This document shows, piece after piece, positions 4-64,000 of a stretch of 64,000 nucleotides of DNA. Origin of the DNA: a virus (taxonomy: Duplodnaviria; Caudoviricetes). The notes below the pieces were generated by a model that was given only the letters and a program-made list of their open reading frames with translations, searched no databases and was not told the origin of the DNA. The stretch is from IMG/VR virus record IMGVR_UViG_3300033120_000925, positions 1 through 64,000 of that record. One strand, given 5' to 3'. The stretch's first letter is position 1; the number at the start of each line of letters is the position of its first letter. A program made the position numbers and the translations under genes.

Positions 4-76
4 GAAAAGGGGCGTTCCGCTCACCAAGGCGAAGCCGGAGCCCGATGGAGTGCAGCCCGGAGGGATGTACTCCATC
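4..76. repeat. 73-bp GC-rich sequence identical to 63573-63645, ending in hairpin GATGGAGTGCA...TGTACTCCATC
   Basis: Direct comparison: GAAAAGGGGCGTTCC...GTACTCCATC occurs at 4-76 and 63573-63645; flanks differ. Confidence 0.95.
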
Positions 77-40994: not shown

Positions 40995-41374
40995 TCACTT
41001 GGATTTAAACCCCTGATTGTTTTTCCGTTTGGTAATAAATTAGATTGCGTGTCAAGCATTAAAGCCAACTTCACTTTTAACCATTCTTTTTCCGATTTTG
41101 TCATTCCTGTAAAATCATTAGTAGATTCTAAATAAGCGTCTAATTGGTTTATCTTTTCGTTATCGTAAAACACTTCTTTAGATGAAATCGCTTCGGGTGG
41201 CGATAGCGTAATATCCCAATCGATAACTAAATAATTGATACCTTCTTTTTTCATTTCAAGAGGCCTAACTTCTACCATAACTTTACCTTGTTTATCGCTT
41301 CGATTACCGTATGCAATAATGTTTTTTGTTTGTATCATTTTTTTATATTTAATTAGCAACCCAATTTGTGCCAT
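40976..41374 (-). CDS. Hypothetical protein after fibre gene (start ~41338)
   Basis: ORF track. Confidence 0.55.
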   Translation of the reverse strand: MAQIGLLIKYKKMIQTKNIIAYGNRSDKQGKVMVEVRPLEMKKEGINYLVIDWDITLSPPEAISSKEVFYDNEKINQLDAYLESTNDFTGMTKSEKEWLKVKLALMLDTQSNLLPNGKTIRGLNPSDWEFTV

Positions 41375-44300
41375 TATAAAATACAGGAGTTATAACTGCA
41401 CCACCACCTACTATTGTAGTCATATATGTTGGCGATAACGCATCACTTACGACTGCAGTTTCTCCTGTTGTAGCAGTTGGTAAAGTAGCAACTGTGTATA
41501 TTTTTAATTTTACTGGCGCAAAAAATTCTGAAACTCCTAATTCATTAATTTCCATTCTCACAGTTTCAGTTTGCATATCTGTTCCTGATGTAGTTTTTGC
41601 ACCTGTAATAAGTTGAATTTTCGAACCTCCAGTTCCTTTTCCTGTTCCAGATTTTAACTTTAAAACCCCACCATTTAAATTTGCAGTCCCTAATGCATTA
41701 TTATTTTGGATATAAATGTCTCCCCCGTTAACATTTGCGTACACATTCCCATTAGGAGCTGCAGCCATTCCATTCCAGTATTTTGTTCCTTGCCCTAATG
41801 CTACAAAATTTCCTGTTCCAGCAGTCTGCATATAAATATCGCCTCCACTTACGAAGGCATGTATATTCCCATTTGGCGCGGCAGTCATACCATACCAATT
41901 CCTAGCAGTTTGCCCTAATGCTACAAAATTTCCTGTTCCGGCAGTCTGCATATAAATATCGCCTCCACTTACTAAGGCATACACATTTCCATTTGGCGCG
42001 GCAGTCATACCATACCAAGTTCTTGAAGTTTGCCCTAATGCTACAAAATTTCCTGTTCCGGCAGTCTGCATATAAATATCGCCGCTAGAAAGACAAGCAT
42101 ACACATTCCCATTAGGAGCTGCAGCCATTCCATTCCAACTCCTTGAGGTTTGGCTTAATGGGTTGAAATTTCCTGTTCCGGCAGTCTGCATATAAATATC
42201 GCCGCTTCCCACGCAAGCATACACATTTCCATTTGGCGCGGCAGTCATACCTGTCCAGTTCCTAGCAGTTTGGCTTAATGGGTTGAAATTTCCTGTTCCG
42301 GTAGTCTGCATATAAATATCGCCGCTTACGACACTAGCATATATGTTACCTGCCGAGGAAGCCGTCATACCTGCCCAAACCCTAAAAGTTTGACTTAAGG
42401 GGTTAAAATTTATATTAGGAACATAATTGATTGCTCGCCCAGCAACTATAGTTAAGTTACGTCCAATTACGGTATTAGCACTCTCTTCTACGCCTATTTC
42501 ACTATCTACTTGATTACCTAAAGTAATATCTTTTGTTGGAGAGGCATATGTCCCAATTCCAAGATAAGTTCCTGTGTCCCACAAACGGGATGAACCCATA
42601 GTTGTCGCAGTCAGAAATTTCGGCAAATAATTAACTACCCCGCCAGTTGGAATGTTCATCTTGTTCGTGTTCACAGAAGCAATGTCCGTCAAGTCAGCAA
42701 GCGTTCCGTCCCTATTTTGTAGGGTGTAGGTTCTCGCTGCTGTATTGGAATTTGTAAAAAATGACGTAAAAGTGTTAGCCACATTACGAAGTCCAAACAT
42801 TCCAGATAAAAAAGTTTTTAATCCTGAAACAGTTTGAGTTGATGCCAATACCATATCGCCACCACCTCCAACTGCTGGATGCGTATGTGTCGTGATTTCC
42901 CCGGTAAGTTTCGCTTCAATTTCGGCTTTTGTAATGTCGCTGTTCTTTTGCGCGTTGTTTGGAGCCGTTGATGGCGTGAAACCCAAAGCTGCAATCACAT
43001 TGGCATAAGTCAAATTCGCCAAAAATCGTGCAACTGTCCAGTATAGGTTTGTGCTTCCTTCGGGTAAGGCATCGGTTGTACTTGCTCCTGTAGCCCCACC
43101 AACTATCCAACCCGCTTCATTATCCCAAATCCATTCTTTTGCATCAACTCCTGTTCCTGAATCTACAATAGCGTAATCGCCATCTGTAGCTGTAGGATGT
43201 GCCGTGGTCAATGCGCCTGAACTAGTGTATTTTCCTTTAAAATGTTGGTTGTATGAGGATGCGTCGAGTTTTGAGTCTAAAGCCGTTTGTTGCGCTGTAG
43301 AAATAGGCTTGTTGATGTCGGAGGTGTTGTCTACGTTTCCTAATCCTACTTGTGTTTTGGTTTGGTTGGCAGGCGTAATGGTAATTTCTTTACCTACTGC
43401 GCTTACGACTGCTCCATTTCCTCCTTTTAAAGTAAATGTATCGTCTTTTATCGTAGCATTGGCTATTCCGCTATCGGTAACAATACTGGTAATCGCTTTT
43501 TGGGTTGGAGACACAACTGAACTTCCTTTTACCAAAACTACGTTGTCAATACTAAATCCTGCATTTGCCCAAGGGAATACTATTTTAATCGTGTCAAAAC
43601 TAACTCCAGTGAATGTAAAAGAAGAAAAATCTACAACTAAAGATTGGTATGATCCAAAACTGCCAAACTTGTAATTATTGAGTCCTGTTTTTATTACATA
43701 ACTTCCTATAGTATTCGAGCCGTTTAAAAAGTAAACATTGATTCCATGTGTTTTACCGTAATTTTCAACAAAAAACAAGTCGAATTTTAGCGTGTTAAAG
43801 TCGGATATGCTTTTGGTGGTGGATGATACAAATTGCGTAAACATTCCTGAAGATGGATTCACGATGTCTGCATTTTTAACTCCTTTTGATGGTCTATTGG
43901 TCGCGTTAAAATTTACTAATCCGCCAAGAGAAGATGTCGCCCATTCCGTATTCTCGTTATAAACCTGCTCAATGGATGAATCTACAGGGGTTGTGGATAA
44001 AGCCGTAACTAATTCAGAAGTAACAAATAATTCTATCCCTTCATCTATGGTAGGAATTAAAGGATTCAACGCAGGGATTCCTGTGGCTTTTTGCGCCCCT
44101 AAAGCATTTACATAAATAACGTCAAACCTCGGATAAGTAGCGTCTGATGCGTTTAGTGTAATTTGCTGTGTTGCCCCTGGATACAAAACTCCCTGAATGT
44201 AGTAATCAGGATAAATTACGTCATAAACATATCCTACTCCTGTCCATACAGCGAAAGCCTGTCCTGTAAAATTAGTGTTAAGGTCCTGCAAGTTCTCCAA

Positions 44301-44903
44301 AACCAAAATCCTGTCGTCTATGTCTTTGGCCGTTCCTGTATATCCGTCTTTGTCTAGTTTTAGCGGATCCGATGTTCCTGCCGATGTCGCTTTTAATTCA
44401 AAGTCAAAAAAGTAAACATTTAGGTTTTCCAACAAAGGCAAAAACTCGTTTTCCTTAAAAACTGTTATGTTAAGAATAAAATAATCCGGAAAATCTTCGA
44501 TGCTCGCAATGTCGAAATAAACCGCATTGTTTTGGTTGTTCGAGTTTCGTAGTTTCAAATAGAAATCCGTGGCGTTGGCCTGAAGAAACAAATAAAGTTC
44601 CTGCAAATTATCCCCTGAATTATTAAACTTATTTATGTATAACTTAGTTAATGATGGCGTACTTAACTCATTTTCGTCAGACAAAAATCGTCCCTCAAGT
44701 AAAACTTCAGTACTTAAATAAGGAGAAGTACTGAATACGTAATTTAATATTGGGGTTCCGTTTAGCTTATTCACCAAACCCGCCACCTCTTCAAATCCAA
44801 AATTTACGGTTTTGTTGAAATCCTCACTATCTGTACCTACAAAATAGTCGGATGAAATAGGTTTTTTCTTCGGGTAGGCAGTCTTTGAGGATATTTTTGT
44901 CAT
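41349..44903 (-). CDS. Main tail fibre / receptor-binding protein with 6x40-aa propeller-like repeat
   Basis: Modular Thr/Gly-rich fibre motifs (KTQVGLGNVDNTSD, TTDALPEGSTNLY) and repeat GNFxxLxQTxRxWxGMxAAPNGNVYA. Confidence 0.85.
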   Translation of the reverse strand: MTKISSKTAYPKKKPISSDYFVGTDSEDFNKTVNFGFEEVAGLVNKLNGTPILNYVFSTSPYLSTEVLLEGRFLSDENELSTPSLTKLYINKFNNSGDNLQELYLFLQANATDFYLKLRNSNNQNNAVYFDIASIEDFPDYFILNITVFKENEFLPLLENLNVYFFDFELKATSAGTSDPLKLDKDGYTGTAKDIDDRILVLENLQDLNTNFTGQAFAVWTGVGYVYDVIYPDYYIQGVLYPGATQQITLNASDATYPRFDVIYVNALGAQKATGIPALNPLIPTIDEGIELFVTSELVTALSTTPVDSSIEQVYNENTEWATSSLGGLVNFNATNRPSKGVKNADIVNPSSGMFTQFVSSTTKSISDFNTLKFDLFFVENYGKTHGINVYFLNGSNTIGSYVIKTGLNNYKFGSFGSYQSLVVDFSSFTFTGVSFDTIKIVFPWANAGFSIDNVVLVKGSSVVSPTQKAITSIVTDSGIANATIKDDTFTLKGGNGAVVSAVGKEITITPANQTKTQVGLGNVDNTSDINKPISTAQQTALDSKLDASSYNQHFKGKYTSSGALTTAHPTATDGDYAIVDSGTGVDAKEWIWDNEAGWIVGGATGASTTDALPEGSTNLYWTVARFLANLTYANVIAALGFTPSTAPNNAQKNSDITKAEIEAKLTGEITTHTHPAVGGGGDMVLASTQTVSGLKTFLSGMFGLRNVANTFTSFFTNSNTAARTYTLQNRDGTLADLTDIASVNTNKMNIPTGGVVNYLPKFLTATTMGSSRLWDTGTYLGIGTYASPTKDITLGNQVDSEIGVEESANTVIGRNLTIVAGRAINYVPNINFNPLSQTFRVWAGMTASSAGNIYASVVSGDIYMQTTGTGNFNPLSQTARNWTGMTAAPNGNVYACVGSGDIYMQTAGTGNFNPLSQTSRSWNGMAAAPNGNVYACLSSGDIYMQTAGTGNFVALGQTSRTWYGMTAAPNGNVYALVSGGDIYMQTAGTGNFVALGQTARNWYGMTAAPNGNIHAFVSGGDIYMQTAGTGNFVALGQGTKYWNGMAAAPNGNVYANVNGGDIYIQNNNALGTANLNGGVLKLKSGTGKGTGGSKIQLITGAKTTSGTDMQTETVRMEINELGVSEFFAPVKLKIYTVATLPTATTGETAVVSDALSPTYMTTIVGGGAVITPVFYNGTNWVAN
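41701..42410. repeat. Six tandem 120-bp repeats
   Basis: GCAGTCTGCATATAAATATCGCC recurs at 41821, 41941, 42061, 42181 and (GTAGTC variant) 42301. Confidence 0.95.
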
Positions 44904-59560: not shown

Positions 59561-60299
59561 ATGAACACAGTACAAACGGAATACTCAAAAGATTTTAATT
59601 TTTTCCTCAACGAACAAATAGGAATTAATGCAAGGAATCAAGGGAAATATATTTCTTTCTTTTCTCGACTAGATGGAAAACTTTTTAAAACTATCGACCA
59701 TCACAAAGAAATTTCTAACGAAGAAATAATAGAAATGAGCAAAACTATTCATTTAACCCTCCCAAAATACGACTAAATATGAACACAACACTTTTATTAT
59801 CAGTAATCGCTTTAATTGTGCTTTGCGTGCTACTTTTGCGAAAAATCATCAAGCAAGAAATTATTATTTTTGATCTAAACGACAAACTTAATATTTCCGA
59901 CTACGAATACATTTCCTTATTCGGGGAGAATAGAAAACTATCAAAAACTATTGATACATTCGCCGAAATTCGTCATTCTGAATCTTGGTATTCCGAAGAA
60001 AACGAAAAAAGAATGAATATTATCGGGCAAAATGGCAACGACGGAGAACATTACAAAAACGAAAAATTATGAAATTATCTACAGACGACATATTTGTTTT
60101 GTCAATCGCTCTTGAACAATTACACAATCCAAAAGGGAAATGCCCTTTAAATGAAGGCGGAATAAGAAAACTTGCTTCTATTCAAGCAAAAATGGCCGAA
60201 CACTTATTGCCAGTAAAAGCAAAAGATATTGTTGATGGTCTCGCAGAACTATTATTAAAAAGTATAAATTACGACAAACAAAAAGCCTCCCAGAAATGA
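59561..60299 (+). other. Three small hypothetical ORFs (59561; 59779 with N-terminal TM; ~60070)
   Basis: ORF track. Confidence 0.55.
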
Positions 60300-60312
60300 G
60301 AGGCTTTTTTTT
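60280..60312. terminator. Bidirectional terminator
   Basis: AAAAAGCCTC...GAGGCTTTTTTT. Confidence 0.85.
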
Positions 60313-60326
60313 ATGTTTAAAAATGA

Positions 60327-60692
60327 CTAAAACTCTTTCTTAACCAAAAGAAAAAAATCATCTTTTATCTCACAATACCCTTTATCGTAAACAAAATAAT
60401 ACTTGTTTCCAGTTTTAGCCTCCAAAAAACTTGTAAAAAATTCAAAATCAAAACCTTTTTTCTTCAAAAGTTTACGTTCTACTTTTGGATTTTCGCATAC
60501 ATTTAATTCAGTCAAAATACGATAATTTTTACGTAGGCGATTGTTTATATTCCTCACTAAATTTGTAGCGTCTTTGTTTTGACGGTTATTGTACGTATTC
60601 CGGCACTTGTTGGAGCAAAACATCTTATCTTCCCTTCCAAAAATTTCTTCTCCACATTCGGCACAAAATCGCTTTTCTTTTATTGGTTCCAT
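60327..60692 (-). CDS. DUF2116-like zinc-ribbon protein of Bacteroidota type
   Basis: CAECGEEIFGREDKMFCSNKCRNTYNN. Confidence 0.75.
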   Translation of the reverse strand: MEPIKEKRFCAECGEEIFGREDKMFCSNKCRNTYNNRQNKDATNLVRNINNRLRKNYRILTELNVCENPKVERKLLKKKGFDFEFFTSFLEAKTGNKYYFVYDKGYCEIKDDFFLLVKKEF

Positions 60693-61924
60693 TGTCGTTT
60701 CATTATTTCGGCATATTCTACCTTACTTGTTTTATTGTAGTGGTCTAATTGGGAGCTTTTTTTACTCCAGCCACAAATTGATTTTATCACGGCATCATCT
60801 ACCTTGCCATAGTTATTCGTAGCAAAACTTCGGCGACAAACGTGTGACGAAATTAGTTTATATTTCTCGAAATACCCAACTTTTTTTCTTTTTAAAACTT
60901 TATCGAACAATTTACCGTAAACCAAATTATCTATTTCGCATACTTGGCAAATGGTTTTAATGTGCTTGTTAAAATCCGAACTGCTTATTTTTTGGGGTAA
61001 ATATCCAAAATTATCATTTAGTAATTTTTCTACTTGAAAATGAATCGGGATAACTACCTTAGCTTTTGTTTTTTGAGTTTTAATTGTAAAATTACCATCC
61101 TTTATATTATTTGCATCAAGTTTCAAAAAGTCACTCACACGAAGTCCTGTAAATAATCCCAAAATAAAGTTTTGCTTTGCAACGTTCAATTCTTCGTCAT
61201 ACGAAAAATCCTTGTCGATTATCTTCTGGATTTCCTGCTCATTCAAATAAACTCCCTCAATATCATTTTCGGGATCGAAATAAATTCTTTCCTTAAATGC
61301 TTGACTTACTTCAAAATCCATTTCTGTAGCACGATTAAAAAAGAAGCGCAATCTACCTATGTTTCTTTCTATCGTAGAGTTTTGGTAGTTTTCGGTTTCC
61401 TGCCAATCGATAAATCCCTCCAAATCTTTTTTGGTATTGTTACGAAGCGTGATTTTCTCTCCTATTACTTTTTCGTATTCCACAAGAGTTTCGACGAATT
61501 TCTTGTATTGGTTCTTCGCCGGTTCTTCCATTTTCTTTTTGGCCGAAACTTTCCAGTCCGAGGAAAAATTTTCCAACCAATATGTAGCAAAGTCCGAAAC
61601 GTAAATCGTATGTAATGGACTTACCATCGAAATTTCCTCTTTCGGGCGCATAAATGTAGTTTTAATTACCTTTTGCAACCAAATCTTATCAATCAAAACT
61701 CCACGGCAAAAGTCTTTATTGTATTGCTTTAAAATATCCGTTTTAAGCTCTTGTAAAGCAATAGTCACTTCATTATTCCCTACAACAGTTTCCGTCGCAG
61801 AAACCCATTCAGAATCCGTCAGCATCACGTTTATCGCTGCCGACACGTCCAACTTATGATGATAGAAGCGAACAGATAATTTCTTTATCGCCTTTGTTCC
61901 GTTTAATGTGAATTTGATATTCAT
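60680..61924 (-). CDS. int: Tyrosine integrase (Bacteroidota arm/SAM-like type)
   Basis: Catalytic GLRVSD, KTQKT, HVCRRSFAT, GW, Y residues present. Confidence 0.92.
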   Translation of the reverse strand: MNIKFTLNGTKAIKKLSVRFYHHKLDVSAAINVMLTDSEWVSATETVVGNNEVTIALQELKTDILKQYNKDFCRGVLIDKIWLQKVIKTTFMRPKEEISMVSPLHTIYVSDFATYWLENFSSDWKVSAKKKMEEPAKNQYKKFVETLVEYEKVIGEKITLRNNTKKDLEGFIDWQETENYQNSTIERNIGRLRFFFNRATEMDFEVSQAFKERIYFDPENDIEGVYLNEQEIQKIIDKDFSYDEELNVAKQNFILGLFTGLRVSDFLKLDANNIKDGNFTIKTQKTKAKVVIPIHFQVEKLLNDNFGYLPQKISSSDFNKHIKTICQVCEIDNLVYGKLFDKVLKRKKVGYFEKYKLISSHVCRRSFATNNYGKVDDAVIKSICGWSKKSSQLDHYNKTSKVEYAEIMKRQWNQ

Positions 61925-61943
61925 AATATAAAGTTTTGATAAG

Positions 61944-62033
61944 CAAAGTTACATATAAATAATCAAATATAGATATATTTTCAGAAATAATTTCATTTTA
62001 ACTGTCTATATATGAAATTAATTCCTATCTTTG
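61944..62033. promoter_or_regulatory. Divergent int/xis promoters (minus TAACTTTG at 61944-61951, plus TATCTTTG at 62026-62033)
   Basis: Match to Bacteroidetes -7 box. Confidence 0.65.
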
Positions 62034-62064
62034 CGAAACAATTTCCATTTAAAAACAAATAAAA

Positions 62065-62298
62065 ATGAAAGAAAAGATATTTATAGAGCTAACAGATGAC
62101 CAAATAAATAAAGTCTTTGAATCTCGACAACCAAAAATAATTGAGCCAATAACTTTTTCAATAACGGATGCGGCTAAAAAATTAGGTATAAGCAAAGCGC
62201 ATATTTACATACTAATAAACTCCGGCGAGATTAAAAAAATTATAATTGGAAAATCGCCAAGAATTCACATAGACGAAATAAATAAATTTTTGTTATGA
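62065..62298 (+). CDS. Excisionase-like HTH protein
   Basis: SITDAAKKLGISKAHIYILINSGEI...RIHIDEI; divergent from integrase. Confidence 0.75.
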   Translation: MKEKIFIELTDDQINKVFESRQPKIIEPITFSITDAAKKLGISKAHIYILINSGEIKKIIIGKSPRIHIDEINKFLL

Positions 62299-63020
62299 AA
62301 GATCAAGTAGAGGTTTGGAAGCCTATTCCTGGATATGAAGGAAAGTATGAGTTTAGTAATTTACATAATGTAAAATCATTAAGTAGATTTATTAAAAGAG
62401 GAAATGGTGGTTTTTGGTCAAAAGAAAAGATATTAAAGATTTTTTTAGAGGAAGGATATTATAAAGTAGGGTTATGCTTAAATGGAAAATCTAAAAGTTT
62501 TGGAATACATCAATTAGTTGCTATGGAGTTTTTAAATCATACTCCCTGTGGGTTTGAATTAGTTGTAGAACATAAAAATCAAATCAGGACTGATAATAGA
62601 ATTGAAAATTTAGAGATAATTACTCAAAGGAAAAACGCAAATAAAAAGCATTTAAAAAGCAGTAGTAAATACACTGGGGTTTCGTGGCATAAAAAGAATA
62701 ATAAATGGAGGTCGGCAATAGTTATCGAAGGAAAAGTAAAACATTTAGGATATTTTGAGATAGAGGAAGAAGCATCAGAATACTATGAAAACGCATTGAA
62801 AAATCATTTATCAGGATTACCTATTAAAACTAAAAATGCAAATTTTAGTTCTAAATACGAAGGAGTTTCTTTAAGTAAAGCAGCTAAAAAATATATGGCA
62901 AGAATAACGATAAAAGGAAAACAAATTTATTTAGGTAGTTTCAATACAGAATTAGAAGCTCATCTAAAATATCAAAATCAATATCGGGAAATCGCCGAGG
63001 ATATGCAGGGCAGAAATTGA
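62295..63020 (+). CDS. NUMOD4-HNH endonuclease with two AP2-like domains
   Basis: EVWKPIPGYEGKYEFSN, VEHKNQIRTDNRIENL, two SKYxGVS...YLGxF repeats. Confidence 0.88.
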   Translation: MKDQVEVWKPIPGYEGKYEFSNLHNVKSLSRFIKRGNGGFWSKEKILKIFLEEGYYKVGLCLNGKSKSFGIHQLVAMEFLNHTPCGFELVVEHKNQIRTDNRIENLEIITQRKNANKKHLKSSSKYTGVSWHKKNNKWRSAIVIEGKVKHLGYFEIEEEASEYYENALKNHLSGLPIKTKNANFSSKYEGVSLSKAAKKYMARITIKGKQIYLGSFNTELEAHLKYQNQYREIAEDMQGRN

Positions 63021-63051
63021 CAAGTTTTTACCCGCTCCTGAATCGTAGTAT

Positions 63052-63188
63052 TCCTGATAACGTTTTGCGTGTATAAGAAGTGGCGGATTAGAACTCCAAA
63101 ACTTTCAGAAAGCACGAAACTGAAATAGAAAAACAGAACTTAAATTAATAACAAAACTAACGCTGAAATGTAGCTGTTGTTACAGGAC
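63052..63188. mobile_element. Degenerate attC-like site 1 (TCCTGATAAC ... GTTACAGGAC)
   Basis: Complementary AAC/GTT ends; inner arms pair poorly. Confidence 0.45.
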
Positions 63189-63209
63189 GGCACTAAAATC
63201 AAATAAAAA

Positions 63210-63479
63210 ATGGGAACATTAAGAAACTTAAAAGGAACTTCTGTAGAAGAAATTGAATGTGAATTTATCACAAAACCATCTGAAATAAAAGATGTTTTAA
63301 AAAACGGAAAAGCCTGTACTGCTGCTGACAGCAATGGTGCGATTAATATATGGAAAGATGATAACGGATTAATTCGTTGTGAATCTATGGCGTATTATCG
63401 CTCTCTTGATACAAAAGAATTTGAAAATATTAAGGACGTAGAAAATTGGGCTAAAAAATGGCTTCGCAAGATAAAGTAA
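63210..63479 (+). CDS. Hypothetical protein, putative cassette ORF
   Basis: ORF track; bracketed by 10-bp perfect inverted repeats. Confidence 0.7.
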   Translation: MGTLRNLKGTSVEEIECEFITKPSEIKDVLKNGKACTAADSNGAINIWKDDNGLIRCESMAYYRSLDTKEFENIKDVENWAKKWLRKIK

Positions 63480-63492
63480 TGTTGCTCTCGCT

Positions 63493-63573
63493 GTCCTGTA
63501 ACGGGCTCCGGCTTGTTCGTCGTTCCGAGAGGAGCTTGCTCCGAAGCGGAATGCGTACAAGCCGGTGATGGGG
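63493..63573. mobile_element. attC-like site 2
   Basis: GTCCTGTAAC left end, 9-bp perfect stem CCGGCTTGT/ACAAGCCGG, bulged T, inner GGAGC-TT-GCTCC hairpin; right end reads GATGGGG. Confidence 0.6.
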
Positions 63574-63645
63574 AAAAGGGGCGTTCCGCTCACCAAGGCG
63601 AAGCCGGAGCCCGATGGAGTGCAGCCCGGAGGGATGTACTCCATC

Positions 63646-63730
63646 GGTCTAGCTTGTAGCTGTATGCCAAGATAGAACGTGAATAGAAAGAAAATAGTCA
63701 TAGCATATAGCTACAAGCGTATGTTAGGGT
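63646..63730. mobile_element. attC-like site 3
   Basis: GCTTGTAGCTGTATGC / GCATATAGCTACAAGC arms then GTTAGGGT. Confidence 0.55.
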
Positions 63731-63822
63731 TCGTTGCGGATGATTAAAGAAGGTTTCATCGAGTACAAAAACGTCTCTCACGATTGAAAGATAAGGCGTT
63801 CCTTCATTTTTAAATTTATATT

Positions 63823-64000
63823 ATGAAATTAACAGATAAACAATTTAGGGTTTTAGAGTTTTTGATAAATAAAGGAAGAAATTATAATACTTCTGTTCAC
63901 GGAACTATGCTGACTAAAATTATCTATGATGAAGAAACTATTAAAAAATATTCTTTTGCTAGAACTGCTAAAATGGTAATTGACACAATGACTTTTTCTT
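63823..64000 (+). CDS. Hypothetical protein, truncated by window end
   Basis: Open frame MKLTDKQFRVLEFLINKGR... to 64000 (manual translation). Confidence 0.5.
   Translation, partial: MKLTDKQFRVLEFLINKGRNYNTSVHGTMLTKIIYDEETIKKYSFARTAKMVIDTMTFS

Follow-up and report, generated by a model that had tools for sequence, protein, structure and literature searches.

Integron-like cassettes of small genes in a probable Flavobacterium phage, with mirrored polarity and a likely link to a host Xer-type recombinase

The question raised by this locus is whether a small phage gene flanked by inverted repeats is a gene cassette of the integron kind and, if so, which enzyme could move it. The window analysed is a stretch of 64,000 nucleotides, bases 1–64000 of the 72,722-bp IMG/VR record IMGVR_UViG_3300033120_000925 (CheckV completeness 96%). 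The record, with an overall GC content of 35%, is that of a tailed phage encoding a portal protein, a large terminase, virion proteins, a DNA methyltransferase and a PHROG-1 integrase. A sequence-only reading of the window had noted a cassette signature around an 89-amino-acid (aa) open reading frame (ORF) at 63210–63479, with no integron integrase (IntI) in view, and had named three possible agents: a host IntI, the phage integrase and an unknown recombinase. Integrons are the textbook case of gene capture via folded single-stranded sites, and this capture is thought to be IntI-dependent.

The cassette signature of the 89-aa ORF is confirmed. The ORF belongs to an array of about 16 cassettes that extends from position 63058 to approximately 72650 of the record and looks like a set of small early genes of a Flavobacterium phage kept as separate integron-like cassettes. 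Flavobacterium is very probably the host, since the intergenic elements match those of Flavobacterium psychrophilum phages, Flavobacterium metagenome-assembled genomes (MAGs) and 141 of 301 Flavobacterium species genomes. The integron-style reading turned out to be largely right, with the polarity mirrored; the likely enzyme is a host Xer-type recombinase, neither IntI nor the phage integrase, and the recombination step is one that we infer.

Nearly all spacers between the small plus-strand ORFs from 62 to 72.7 kb follow one plan: x′-TAAC-G, a short bulge, a stem, a loop, the return stem and GTTA-x. Across each intervening ORF, the x after one spacer and the x′ before the next are reverse complements; each cassette is bracketed by GTTA-x ... 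x′-TAAC inverted ends of about 15 bp, and hairpin sites of 70–130 nt lie between the cassettes. At the 89-aa ORF, GTTACAGGACGGC from 63179 and GCTGTCCTGTAAC ending at 63502 pair at 10 of 10 positions and, the next pair being G·T, at 12 of 13 when extended, as had been described. The end ascribed to a third site, GTTAGGGT, is found at 63723–63730, ahead of the ORF starting at 63823. That ORF had been predicted to be followed, beyond 64000, by an end resembling ...ACCCTAAC, and the rest of the record bears this out: the ORF stops at 64167 and GAGCCCTAAC comes directly after it (TAAC at 64172–64175), with 13/15 pairing to 63723–63737.

All 16 cognate ends pair, which upholds the claim of an integron-style signature in a phage. 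The 16 consecutive cognate pairs have on average 8.6/11 Watson–Crick matches beyond the 4-nt core, against 3.2/11 in the 240 non-cognate pairs, and none of 100000 permutations attained the observed sum. Perfect GTTA-led inverted repeats of at least 9 nt (spacing 60–2600) number 11, and all of them fall in the last 13% of the genome, which they tile; their total is uninformative when compared with shuffles, and the location alone is telling. Likewise, 11 of the 16 plus-strand copies of TAACGTT in the record are within this final stretch. A crude genome-wide scan for TAAC...GTTA folds gave a signal too noisy for use. The cassettes at 67749–69171 and 69967–70809 contain three ORFs each. The only broken cognate case, following 67155, is accounted for by the loss of a hairpin. 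TAAC and GTTA are present at every listed site bar one TGAC variant (70806). The sites are 71–128 nt long, with a 3–5-nt bulge beside TAACG on one arm and conserved G·T pairs on one strand.

The stems have a polarity. Their single recurrent mismatch is at position 11, where a G on the GTTA side stands opposite a T on the TAAC side, that is, G·T on the plus strand and A·C on the other. Overall, the mismatches of the 16 cognate stems yield 18 G·T pairs on the plus strand and three on the other. The position-11 rule holds in every other array found, the complementary A/C form being seen in arrays of opposite orientation. When the junctions of circularised units (x′-TAAC, hairpin, GTTA-x) were rebuilt and folded with DNA energy parameters, each of the 16 units formed one long hairpin with 13–15 of the outer 15 nt paired, and the G·T strand was the more stable one in 16/16 units (sum of −379 vs −304 kcal/mol). 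MAFFT alignment followed by RNAalifold misaligned the outer stems of the short sites.

The G·T strand is the coding strand in the phages and mostly the non-coding strand in chromosomal arrays. This bears on the possibility that the structures act in RNA, each early cistron being closed by a long-range 15-bp stem with hairpins between cistrons, so that selection would act on the transcript through processing (of the RNase III type), mRNA stability or translation start. Such a model was once favoured because of the sense-strand G·T: the better-folding strand is the mRNA strand in all phage arrays, the plus-strand fold reaches −131.6 kcal/mol vs −112.5 for the minus strand, and several hairpins hold an ATG in an A-rich loop from which the frame continues into the cargo. 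It was demoted by the opposite gene orientation in the chromosomal arrays, which carry the same polarity marks; a shared mRNA role is therefore unlikely, and a strand-specific DNA substrate is favoured. Moreover, duplicated units end sharply in DNA at TAAC↓G (the arrow marks the exchange point), the sites adjoin a recombinase, and sites that are nearly identical in unrelated phages and hosts are not accounted for by RNA structure alone. We consider the RNA explanation unlikely as the primary one, while an RNA role could be a secondary use in the phages.

The extent of the unit may be read from chromosomal duplicates. One Flavobacterium chromosome (G042) contains nine cassette copies in different neighbourhoods, five of one cassette and two each of two others, 100% identical within each group. 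In the orientation of the G·T strand, the identity starts at the TAACGTT of the left hairpin and ends at the cassette's own x′-TAACGT. Hence the unit consists of hairpin, GTTA-x, body and x′-TAAC, and the exchange point would lie inside TAAC↓GT, the crossover position being suggested by these duplicates. The polarity proposed earlier, a gene followed by its site with crossover at G↓TT, is thus mirrored: the duplicates run from TAAC↓G to TAAC↓G with the hairpin at the 5′ end. Viewed along the chromosomal coding strand, the layout is that of a canonical integron, a gene and then its site, with crossover at G↓TTA, whereas in the phage each gene is headed by its own hairpin, upstream of the ORF.

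The inclusion of hairpin and gene in one unit explains those phage hairpins that supply an ATG in the loop and 15–20 codons in the 3′ arm, in frame with the cargo. One hairpin class combines the ATG in the A-rich loop with a conserved leader (M..N.N..QTSV-S-S/G-S) whose frame continues across GTTA into unrelated cargo, and the GenBank annotation of phage 6H likewise starts those genes at the leader ATG. In one case from phage G2, the hairpin leader is fused to the N-terminus LVTFDFDGTL, which we take to be of the HAD type.

Seven phage records with essentially no other nucleotide similarity carry such arrays, and the sites are the only DNA they share. Sites and cassettes of the same form are present in the cultured F. 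psychrophilum phage 6H and in Polaribacter phage P12002L. One site family, represented here by the 126-nt site at 64900–65025, occurs in G0–G6 with a mean identity of 82%, and its conservation stops exactly at TAAC and GTTA. The same family is found in the 141 Flavobacterium species genomes mentioned above, with identity of up to 97%, often as pairs 600–1200 nt apart, and three chromosomal loci (L066–L068) are long cassette arrays with the same mark at position 11. In the Flavobacterium provirus record G006, the cassette array has as its direct neighbour a 132-aa fragment (L040, 1495–1893), the C-terminal part of a member of the Xer-type recombinase family.

In Flavobacterium genome G201, the array ends in ...CTCCTAAC, followed by an inverted-repeat region and then by a gene for a 347-aa tyrosine recombinase co-directional with the cargo. 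This enzyme passes the NCBIfam XerA/'integron integrase' model NF040815 (226 bits, cut-off 220). With the IntI model TIGR02249 it scores 209 bits, the cut-off being 265, and model positions 176–238, the region of the IntI extra domain, are unmatched. The Xer-type recombinase is common in Flavobacterium, where it bears the NCBI/PGAP name 'site-specific tyrosine recombinase/integron integrase'. Of the ten site-bearing genomes with the enzyme, four (G201, G210, G211, G281) have it within 0.6–4 kb of the sites in matching orientation.

These data may be set against the possibility that the sites are classical attC sites, the array being a cluster of attC sites lacking an integrase (CALIN) in the strict sense, recombined by a true IntI from the host or another element. 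AAC/GTT cores, hairpins of 71–128 nt and the cognate-end signature all fit; in P12002L, one site of this family received an attC call from HattCI, and sites of phage PH101 that look similar proved to be substrates of IntI1 (PMC9892861). P12002L_attC1, the member of the family put to such a test, is nevertheless the sole site of six not recombined by IntI1 (PMC9892861). The conserved letters are only GTTA, not GTTRRRY: the positions after the core show no RRRY/RYYY pattern (for example, GTTACAG, GTTATGC, GTTAGGG). The outer stem is 15 bp, not 7 bp, as cognate pairing reaches about 15 nt vs 7 nt in integrons. The enzyme beside the arrays lacks the IntI extra domain, and a classical IntI above the curated cut-off is present in one of the 301 Flavobacterium genomes, to be compared with sites in 141. 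That IntI is at G235:C174:652-1518 (308.6 bits). TIGR02249 matches neither the window nor the whole record, in agreement with the absence of IntI noted earlier. A classical IntI, whether from the host or elsewhere, is thus a very unlikely agent.

The phage integrase, the second agent proposed, is encoded at 60680–61924. It is the single tyrosine recombinase both in the window and in the whole record, and its place just upstream of the array, with divergent transcription, recalls intI beside an integron array. By family, though, it is an ordinary phage integrase (Pfam Phage_integrase, SAM_5 below the cut-off, PHROG 1) with no match to the IntI or XerA models, an excisionase-like HTH_17 gene adjoins it, and no homologue was found in the seven other array-bearing phage records (G001–G006, G309). 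A search for relatives by means of this integrase found none. That it moves the cassettes is extremely improbable, and of the three agents the best fit is an unknown recombinase, which most likely comes from the host.

A further alternative dispenses with a dedicated recombinase: on this view the hairpins are conserved repeats of a regulatory or selfish kind, similar to the PeSL cassettes of T4 or to REP/MITE-like elements, and general or illegitimate recombination would shuffle the genes that flank them. Several observations weigh against a site-specific system, and some of them fit this alternative directly, as does the restriction of conserved DNA in array phages to the sites. Where two phages have a cassette body in common (G3/G5, G2/G3), the shared segment ends at GTTA and at TAAC, and the hairpins flanking it are unrelated. 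This is not predicted by a single crossover position; either both cores can be exchange points or additional recombination acts. In phages 6H, 1H and 23T, the only closely related set compared, a 3.8-kb difference has its breakpoints in a hairpin loop, not at a core. The segment, present in 6H and absent from 1H (L017 10064–13900 vs L036), was lost by illegitimate deletion and not by cassette excision. Further, the same 6-nt 'barcodes' reappear around unrelated ORFs. No recombinase of the system was found in this phage or in G001–G004, the Xer-type recombinase is absent at E ≤ 1e-60 from 10 of the 20 site-bearing Flavobacterium genomes checked, and the movement of cassettes in the phage itself is something we infer. 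Yet repeats of this kind explain neither the cassette-specific complementary ends with their fixed G·T, nor the exact boundaries of the duplicated units, nor the linkage to a recombinase, and we regard the alternative as improbable.

The array is likely to belong to a system by which Flavobacterium and its phages capture genes in an integron-like manner and which employs a host Xer-type enzyme. A unit extends from one TAAC↓G junction to the next and comprises an imperfect hairpin of 70–130 nt, GTTA-x, a cargo of one to three small ORFs, and x′-TAAC. Upon closure of the unit into a circle, x′ would pair with x and the whole site would become one long hairpin with a 15-bp outer stem bearing the fixed G·T at position 11, the TAAC/GTTA core, a 3–5-nt bulge and an inner stem. 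One strand is predicted to fold better than the other and may be the single-stranded substrate. Its partner would be the short Xer-type tyrosine recombinase without the IntI extra domain, presumably exchanging strands within TAAC↓GT. Since the phage has no Xer-type enzyme, the host copy would have to act in trans for any insertion, excision or shuffling in it. The phage cargo is on the folding strand, opposite to most chromosomal cassettes.

The 89-aa gene illustrates how a cassette may spread. Its protein has relatives at 23 IMG/VR loci, the closest (53% identity) in the 74.7-kb phage G309, and it is the only protein that the two phages have in common at E ≤ 1e-8. The G309 copy has cognate ends of its own, GTTACCAGCAGTAT and ATATTGCTGGTAAT, with a different barcode, the same G·T and a TAAT variant of the core. 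The presence of the gene in cassette format in both phages is, at the level of sequence, evidence for horizontal spread. In more distant relatives of the ORF, from phages of other GC content, a scan for GTTA/TAAC cores found no such ends. The gene hence offers a concrete case for the origin of cassettes, being in cassette format in two unrelated phages, with ends not found in distant relatives by the TAAC-core scan. GC-rich structured elements of a second family are situated at both junctions of the G309 cassette. There are five copies of this element of about 160 nt in G309 (L100 1749, 3188, 3769, 4766; L103 = G309 74532); it is unrelated to the element described next, and in the two copies read it directly follows the TAAT core.

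The segment at 63503–63645, downstream of the 89-aa cassette, had been said to fold like an attC. It is not a hairpin site but a separate GC-rich element, here called R (63% GC), that splits the real site into TAAC at 63499–63502 and the hairpin at 63646–63726. Thus, of the 'second' and 'third' sites distinguished earlier, the latter hairpin is real, and the two are one site interrupted by R. In every copy, element R stands immediately behind TAAC (in two copies CAAC), and it precedes either a hairpin or the inverted-repeat region beside a host recombinase. It occurs in two other IMG/VR phages, in Flavobacterium MAGs and in four of the 301 Flavobacterium species; the 347-aa enzyme of G201 is 81% identical to the recombinase beside R in two MAGs. 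The hairpin at 67682–67752 is empty here, and its close homologue in phage G2 has R in front, inserted exactly between TAAC and GTT.

Five variants of R, 72–100% identical, have a common structure with 63 predicted pairs, 16 of them with compensatory changes. A multibranch domain of 120 nt comes first, and GATG-x, a conserved 13-nt loop and x′-CATC complete the element. As this build resembles that of a normal unit, R is probably a cassette that has a variant core and no ORF. For the GC-rich island, a group I/II intron, a retron and an attP fragment of a host RNA gene were dropped, given that R recurs after TAAC in several settings; nothing was found in support of an IS200/IS605-type miniature element or omega-RNA, the GATG...CATC ends being better fitted by an ORF-less cassette. 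A second copy of R is split over both contig ends, each of which stops 76 nt into the element. Therefore the assembly broke in the repeat, and the genome is circular or circularly permuted; a stop 76 nt into a repeat at contig ends is typical of a k=77 assembly break. This end copy is a variant with about 10 extra nucleotides, known from other phages, which accounts for the first three bases of the record, CCT.

We hold to be possible, if short of probable, a wider reading in which Flavobacterium and its phages share an active gene-capture system: flipped phage arrays without a recombinase would borrow the host enzyme and swap early genes among unrelated phages and hosts, and the junctions would accept the ORF-less R, whose covarying fold hints at a functional RNA or DNA of unknown class. 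The cassette logic is that of integrons, in a phylum almost without classical ones. What stands out is the different branch of tyrosine recombinases beside the arrays, their span across host chromosomes and many unrelated phages, and the phage cargo facing the opposite way. If active, the system would give phages site-specific exchange of early accessory genes, likely with host-takeover or anti-defence functions, would link the gene pools of phage and host, and would provide a second, independent system for asking how cassettes and sites arise.

The features of the locus are collected in the table. The x′-TAAC end at 63047–63061 is considered the distal edge of the array because it has no upstream partner.

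Table. Positions of the cassette ends, hairpin sites, cargo genes and copies of R at the start of the array, with the leader-bearing sites further along the record
Feature	Position	Strand	Remark
x′ + TAAC (63058–63061), end of the unit before the first hairpin	63047..63061	+	best upstream GTTA partner only 6/6, chance level
Hairpin site S0, long type, heading the 89-aa ORF cassette, ends in GTTA 63179–63182	63062..63182	+	homologous to the site at 64547–64670
Left inverted end of cassette 1: GTTA + x, G at position 11	63179..63193	+	
Cargo ORF, 89 aa, without Pfam family	63210..63479	+	relatives in 23 IMG/VR phage loci
Right inverted end of cassette 1: x′ + TAAC, T opposite G	63488..63502	+	putative crossover just after TAAC
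Element R, 143-nt GC-rich structured insert	63503..63645	+	
Hairpin heading the next cassette, 16-bp stem, ends in GTTA 63723–63726	63646..63726	+	
Left inverted end of the next cassette	63723..63737	+	partner x′-TAAC at 64161–64175, past the window
Start of the 114-aa cargo ORF	63823..64000	+	ends at 64167, past the window
3′ half of the second R copy	4..76	+	5′ half at record 72647–72722; the copy closes the array
Leader-bearing hairpin sites	record 66279–66394, 69596–69712, 71247–71372		

None of 12 phage cargo proteins scanned with Pfam has a match at the cut-off, the three weak matches being to YueH, YopX and N6_Mtase. An Rfam E-value scan of 60000–64000, the whole array and one chromosomal array found no family for the sites or R, attC being absent from the Rfam families, and ARAGORN found neither tRNA nor tmRNA. 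The cUUCGg tetraloops, considered as a hallmark of RNA, were dropped, as they are not enriched in the arrays.

The last ORF ahead of the array (62295–63020) is homing-endonuclease-like, with NUMOD4, HNH_3 and AP2 domains. It has 74% nucleotide identity over 227 nt to the HNH homing endonuclease gp33 of Polaribacter phage P12002L, and gp33 adjoins the cassette array of that phage just as this ORF adjoins the array here. Between convergent genes at 60233–60380 there is a GC-rich hairpin with A and T runs on its flanks, resembling a bidirectional terminator, to which the weak Rfam leader and small RNA matches are due. Finally, tandem repeats with a period of 120 nt and copies about 82–84% identical (41740–42411) lie inside a 1184-aa ORF (41349–44903) that has weak tail-fibre matches.

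Known systems share single traits with this one. The PeSL regulatory cassettes of T4-type phages, reportedly described by Arbiol, Comeau and Krisch in 2010, are said to be similar in placing repeated intergenic stem-loops, which promote modular shuffling, on the flanks of small early phage genes; they are said to differ in being promoter and stem-loop repeats that act by homologous recombination, without cassette-specific complementary ends or a site-specific recombinase. The pdif (XerC/XerD) modules of Acinetobacter plasmids are likewise discrete gene modules bounded by sites for Xer-type recombinases. Unlike the sites described here, those of pdif modules are 28-bp double-stranded dif-like sequences in alternating orientation, not long hairpins with cassette-specific stems.

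Closer to the present arrays are classical sedentary chromosomal integrons, such as the VCR array of Vibrio cholerae, and phage CALINs. In all of them mostly one-gene, promoterless cassettes are arranged in arrays, and imperfect hairpins of about 60–130 nt have AAC...GTT cores (the integron criterion is about 57–141 nt). A cassette begins with bases complementary to the far end of its own site, homogeneous site families surround unrelated cargo, and copies of one cassette are found in different neighbourhoods. Folding favours one strand, the bulge and the G·T pairs being a possible counterpart of extrahelical bases. With phage CALINs the phage arrays share the lack of an integrase: attC clusters without integrase were reported in 17 phages, including P12002L (Qi et al. 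2023, PMC9892861), and P12002L_attC1 is a member of the present site family. The differences from integrons are that the linked enzyme is of the 347-aa Xer type without the IntI extra domain, upstream of and co-directional with the cargo; that the conserved core is only GTTA/TAAC, with an outer stem of about 15 bp and a fixed G·T; that the phage genes are on the folding strand, with the hairpin heading the gene; and that IntI1 failed on the one family member tested (PMC9892861). Almost no integrons were found in Bacteroidetes with IntegronFinder 2.0 (PMC9024848).

The rAID-1 arrays of Bacteroidales (Ross et al. 2019, bioRxiv 10.1101/471110) combine a XerD-like recombinase at the 5′ end with low-GC genes in a single direction and intergenic repeats resembling those of integrons, the recombinase being at least 44% identical to the enzyme of B. 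fragilis NCTC 9343 by the criterion given there. Together with the phage attC clusters (PMC9892861), they are partial precedents. The Flavobacterium chromosomal arrays have the rAID-1 layout, and rAID-1 is spread widely through one order of Bacteroidota; in both, the phage array included, low-GC genes of one direction are separated by repetitive sequences. That work places rAID-1 in chromosomes of gut Bacteroidales with immunity-gene cargo, not in phages, and its text as consulted here contains no description of repeat anatomy, cognate ends or crossover. No immunity families were recognised among the 12 phage cargo proteins scanned, and the likeness is one of layout. In the cited literature on phage attC clusters, integrons and rAID-1, the last as represented by that text, there is no description of long phage arrays on host-array sites, of 15-bp cognate stems with a fixed G·T, of the flipped phage gene orientation, of the unit boundaries or of R. 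The rAID-1-type feature of a XerD-like recombinase 5′ of a co-directional array is absent from the phage and present in G201, G210, G211 and G281. Hence the phage array is a recombinase-less relative.

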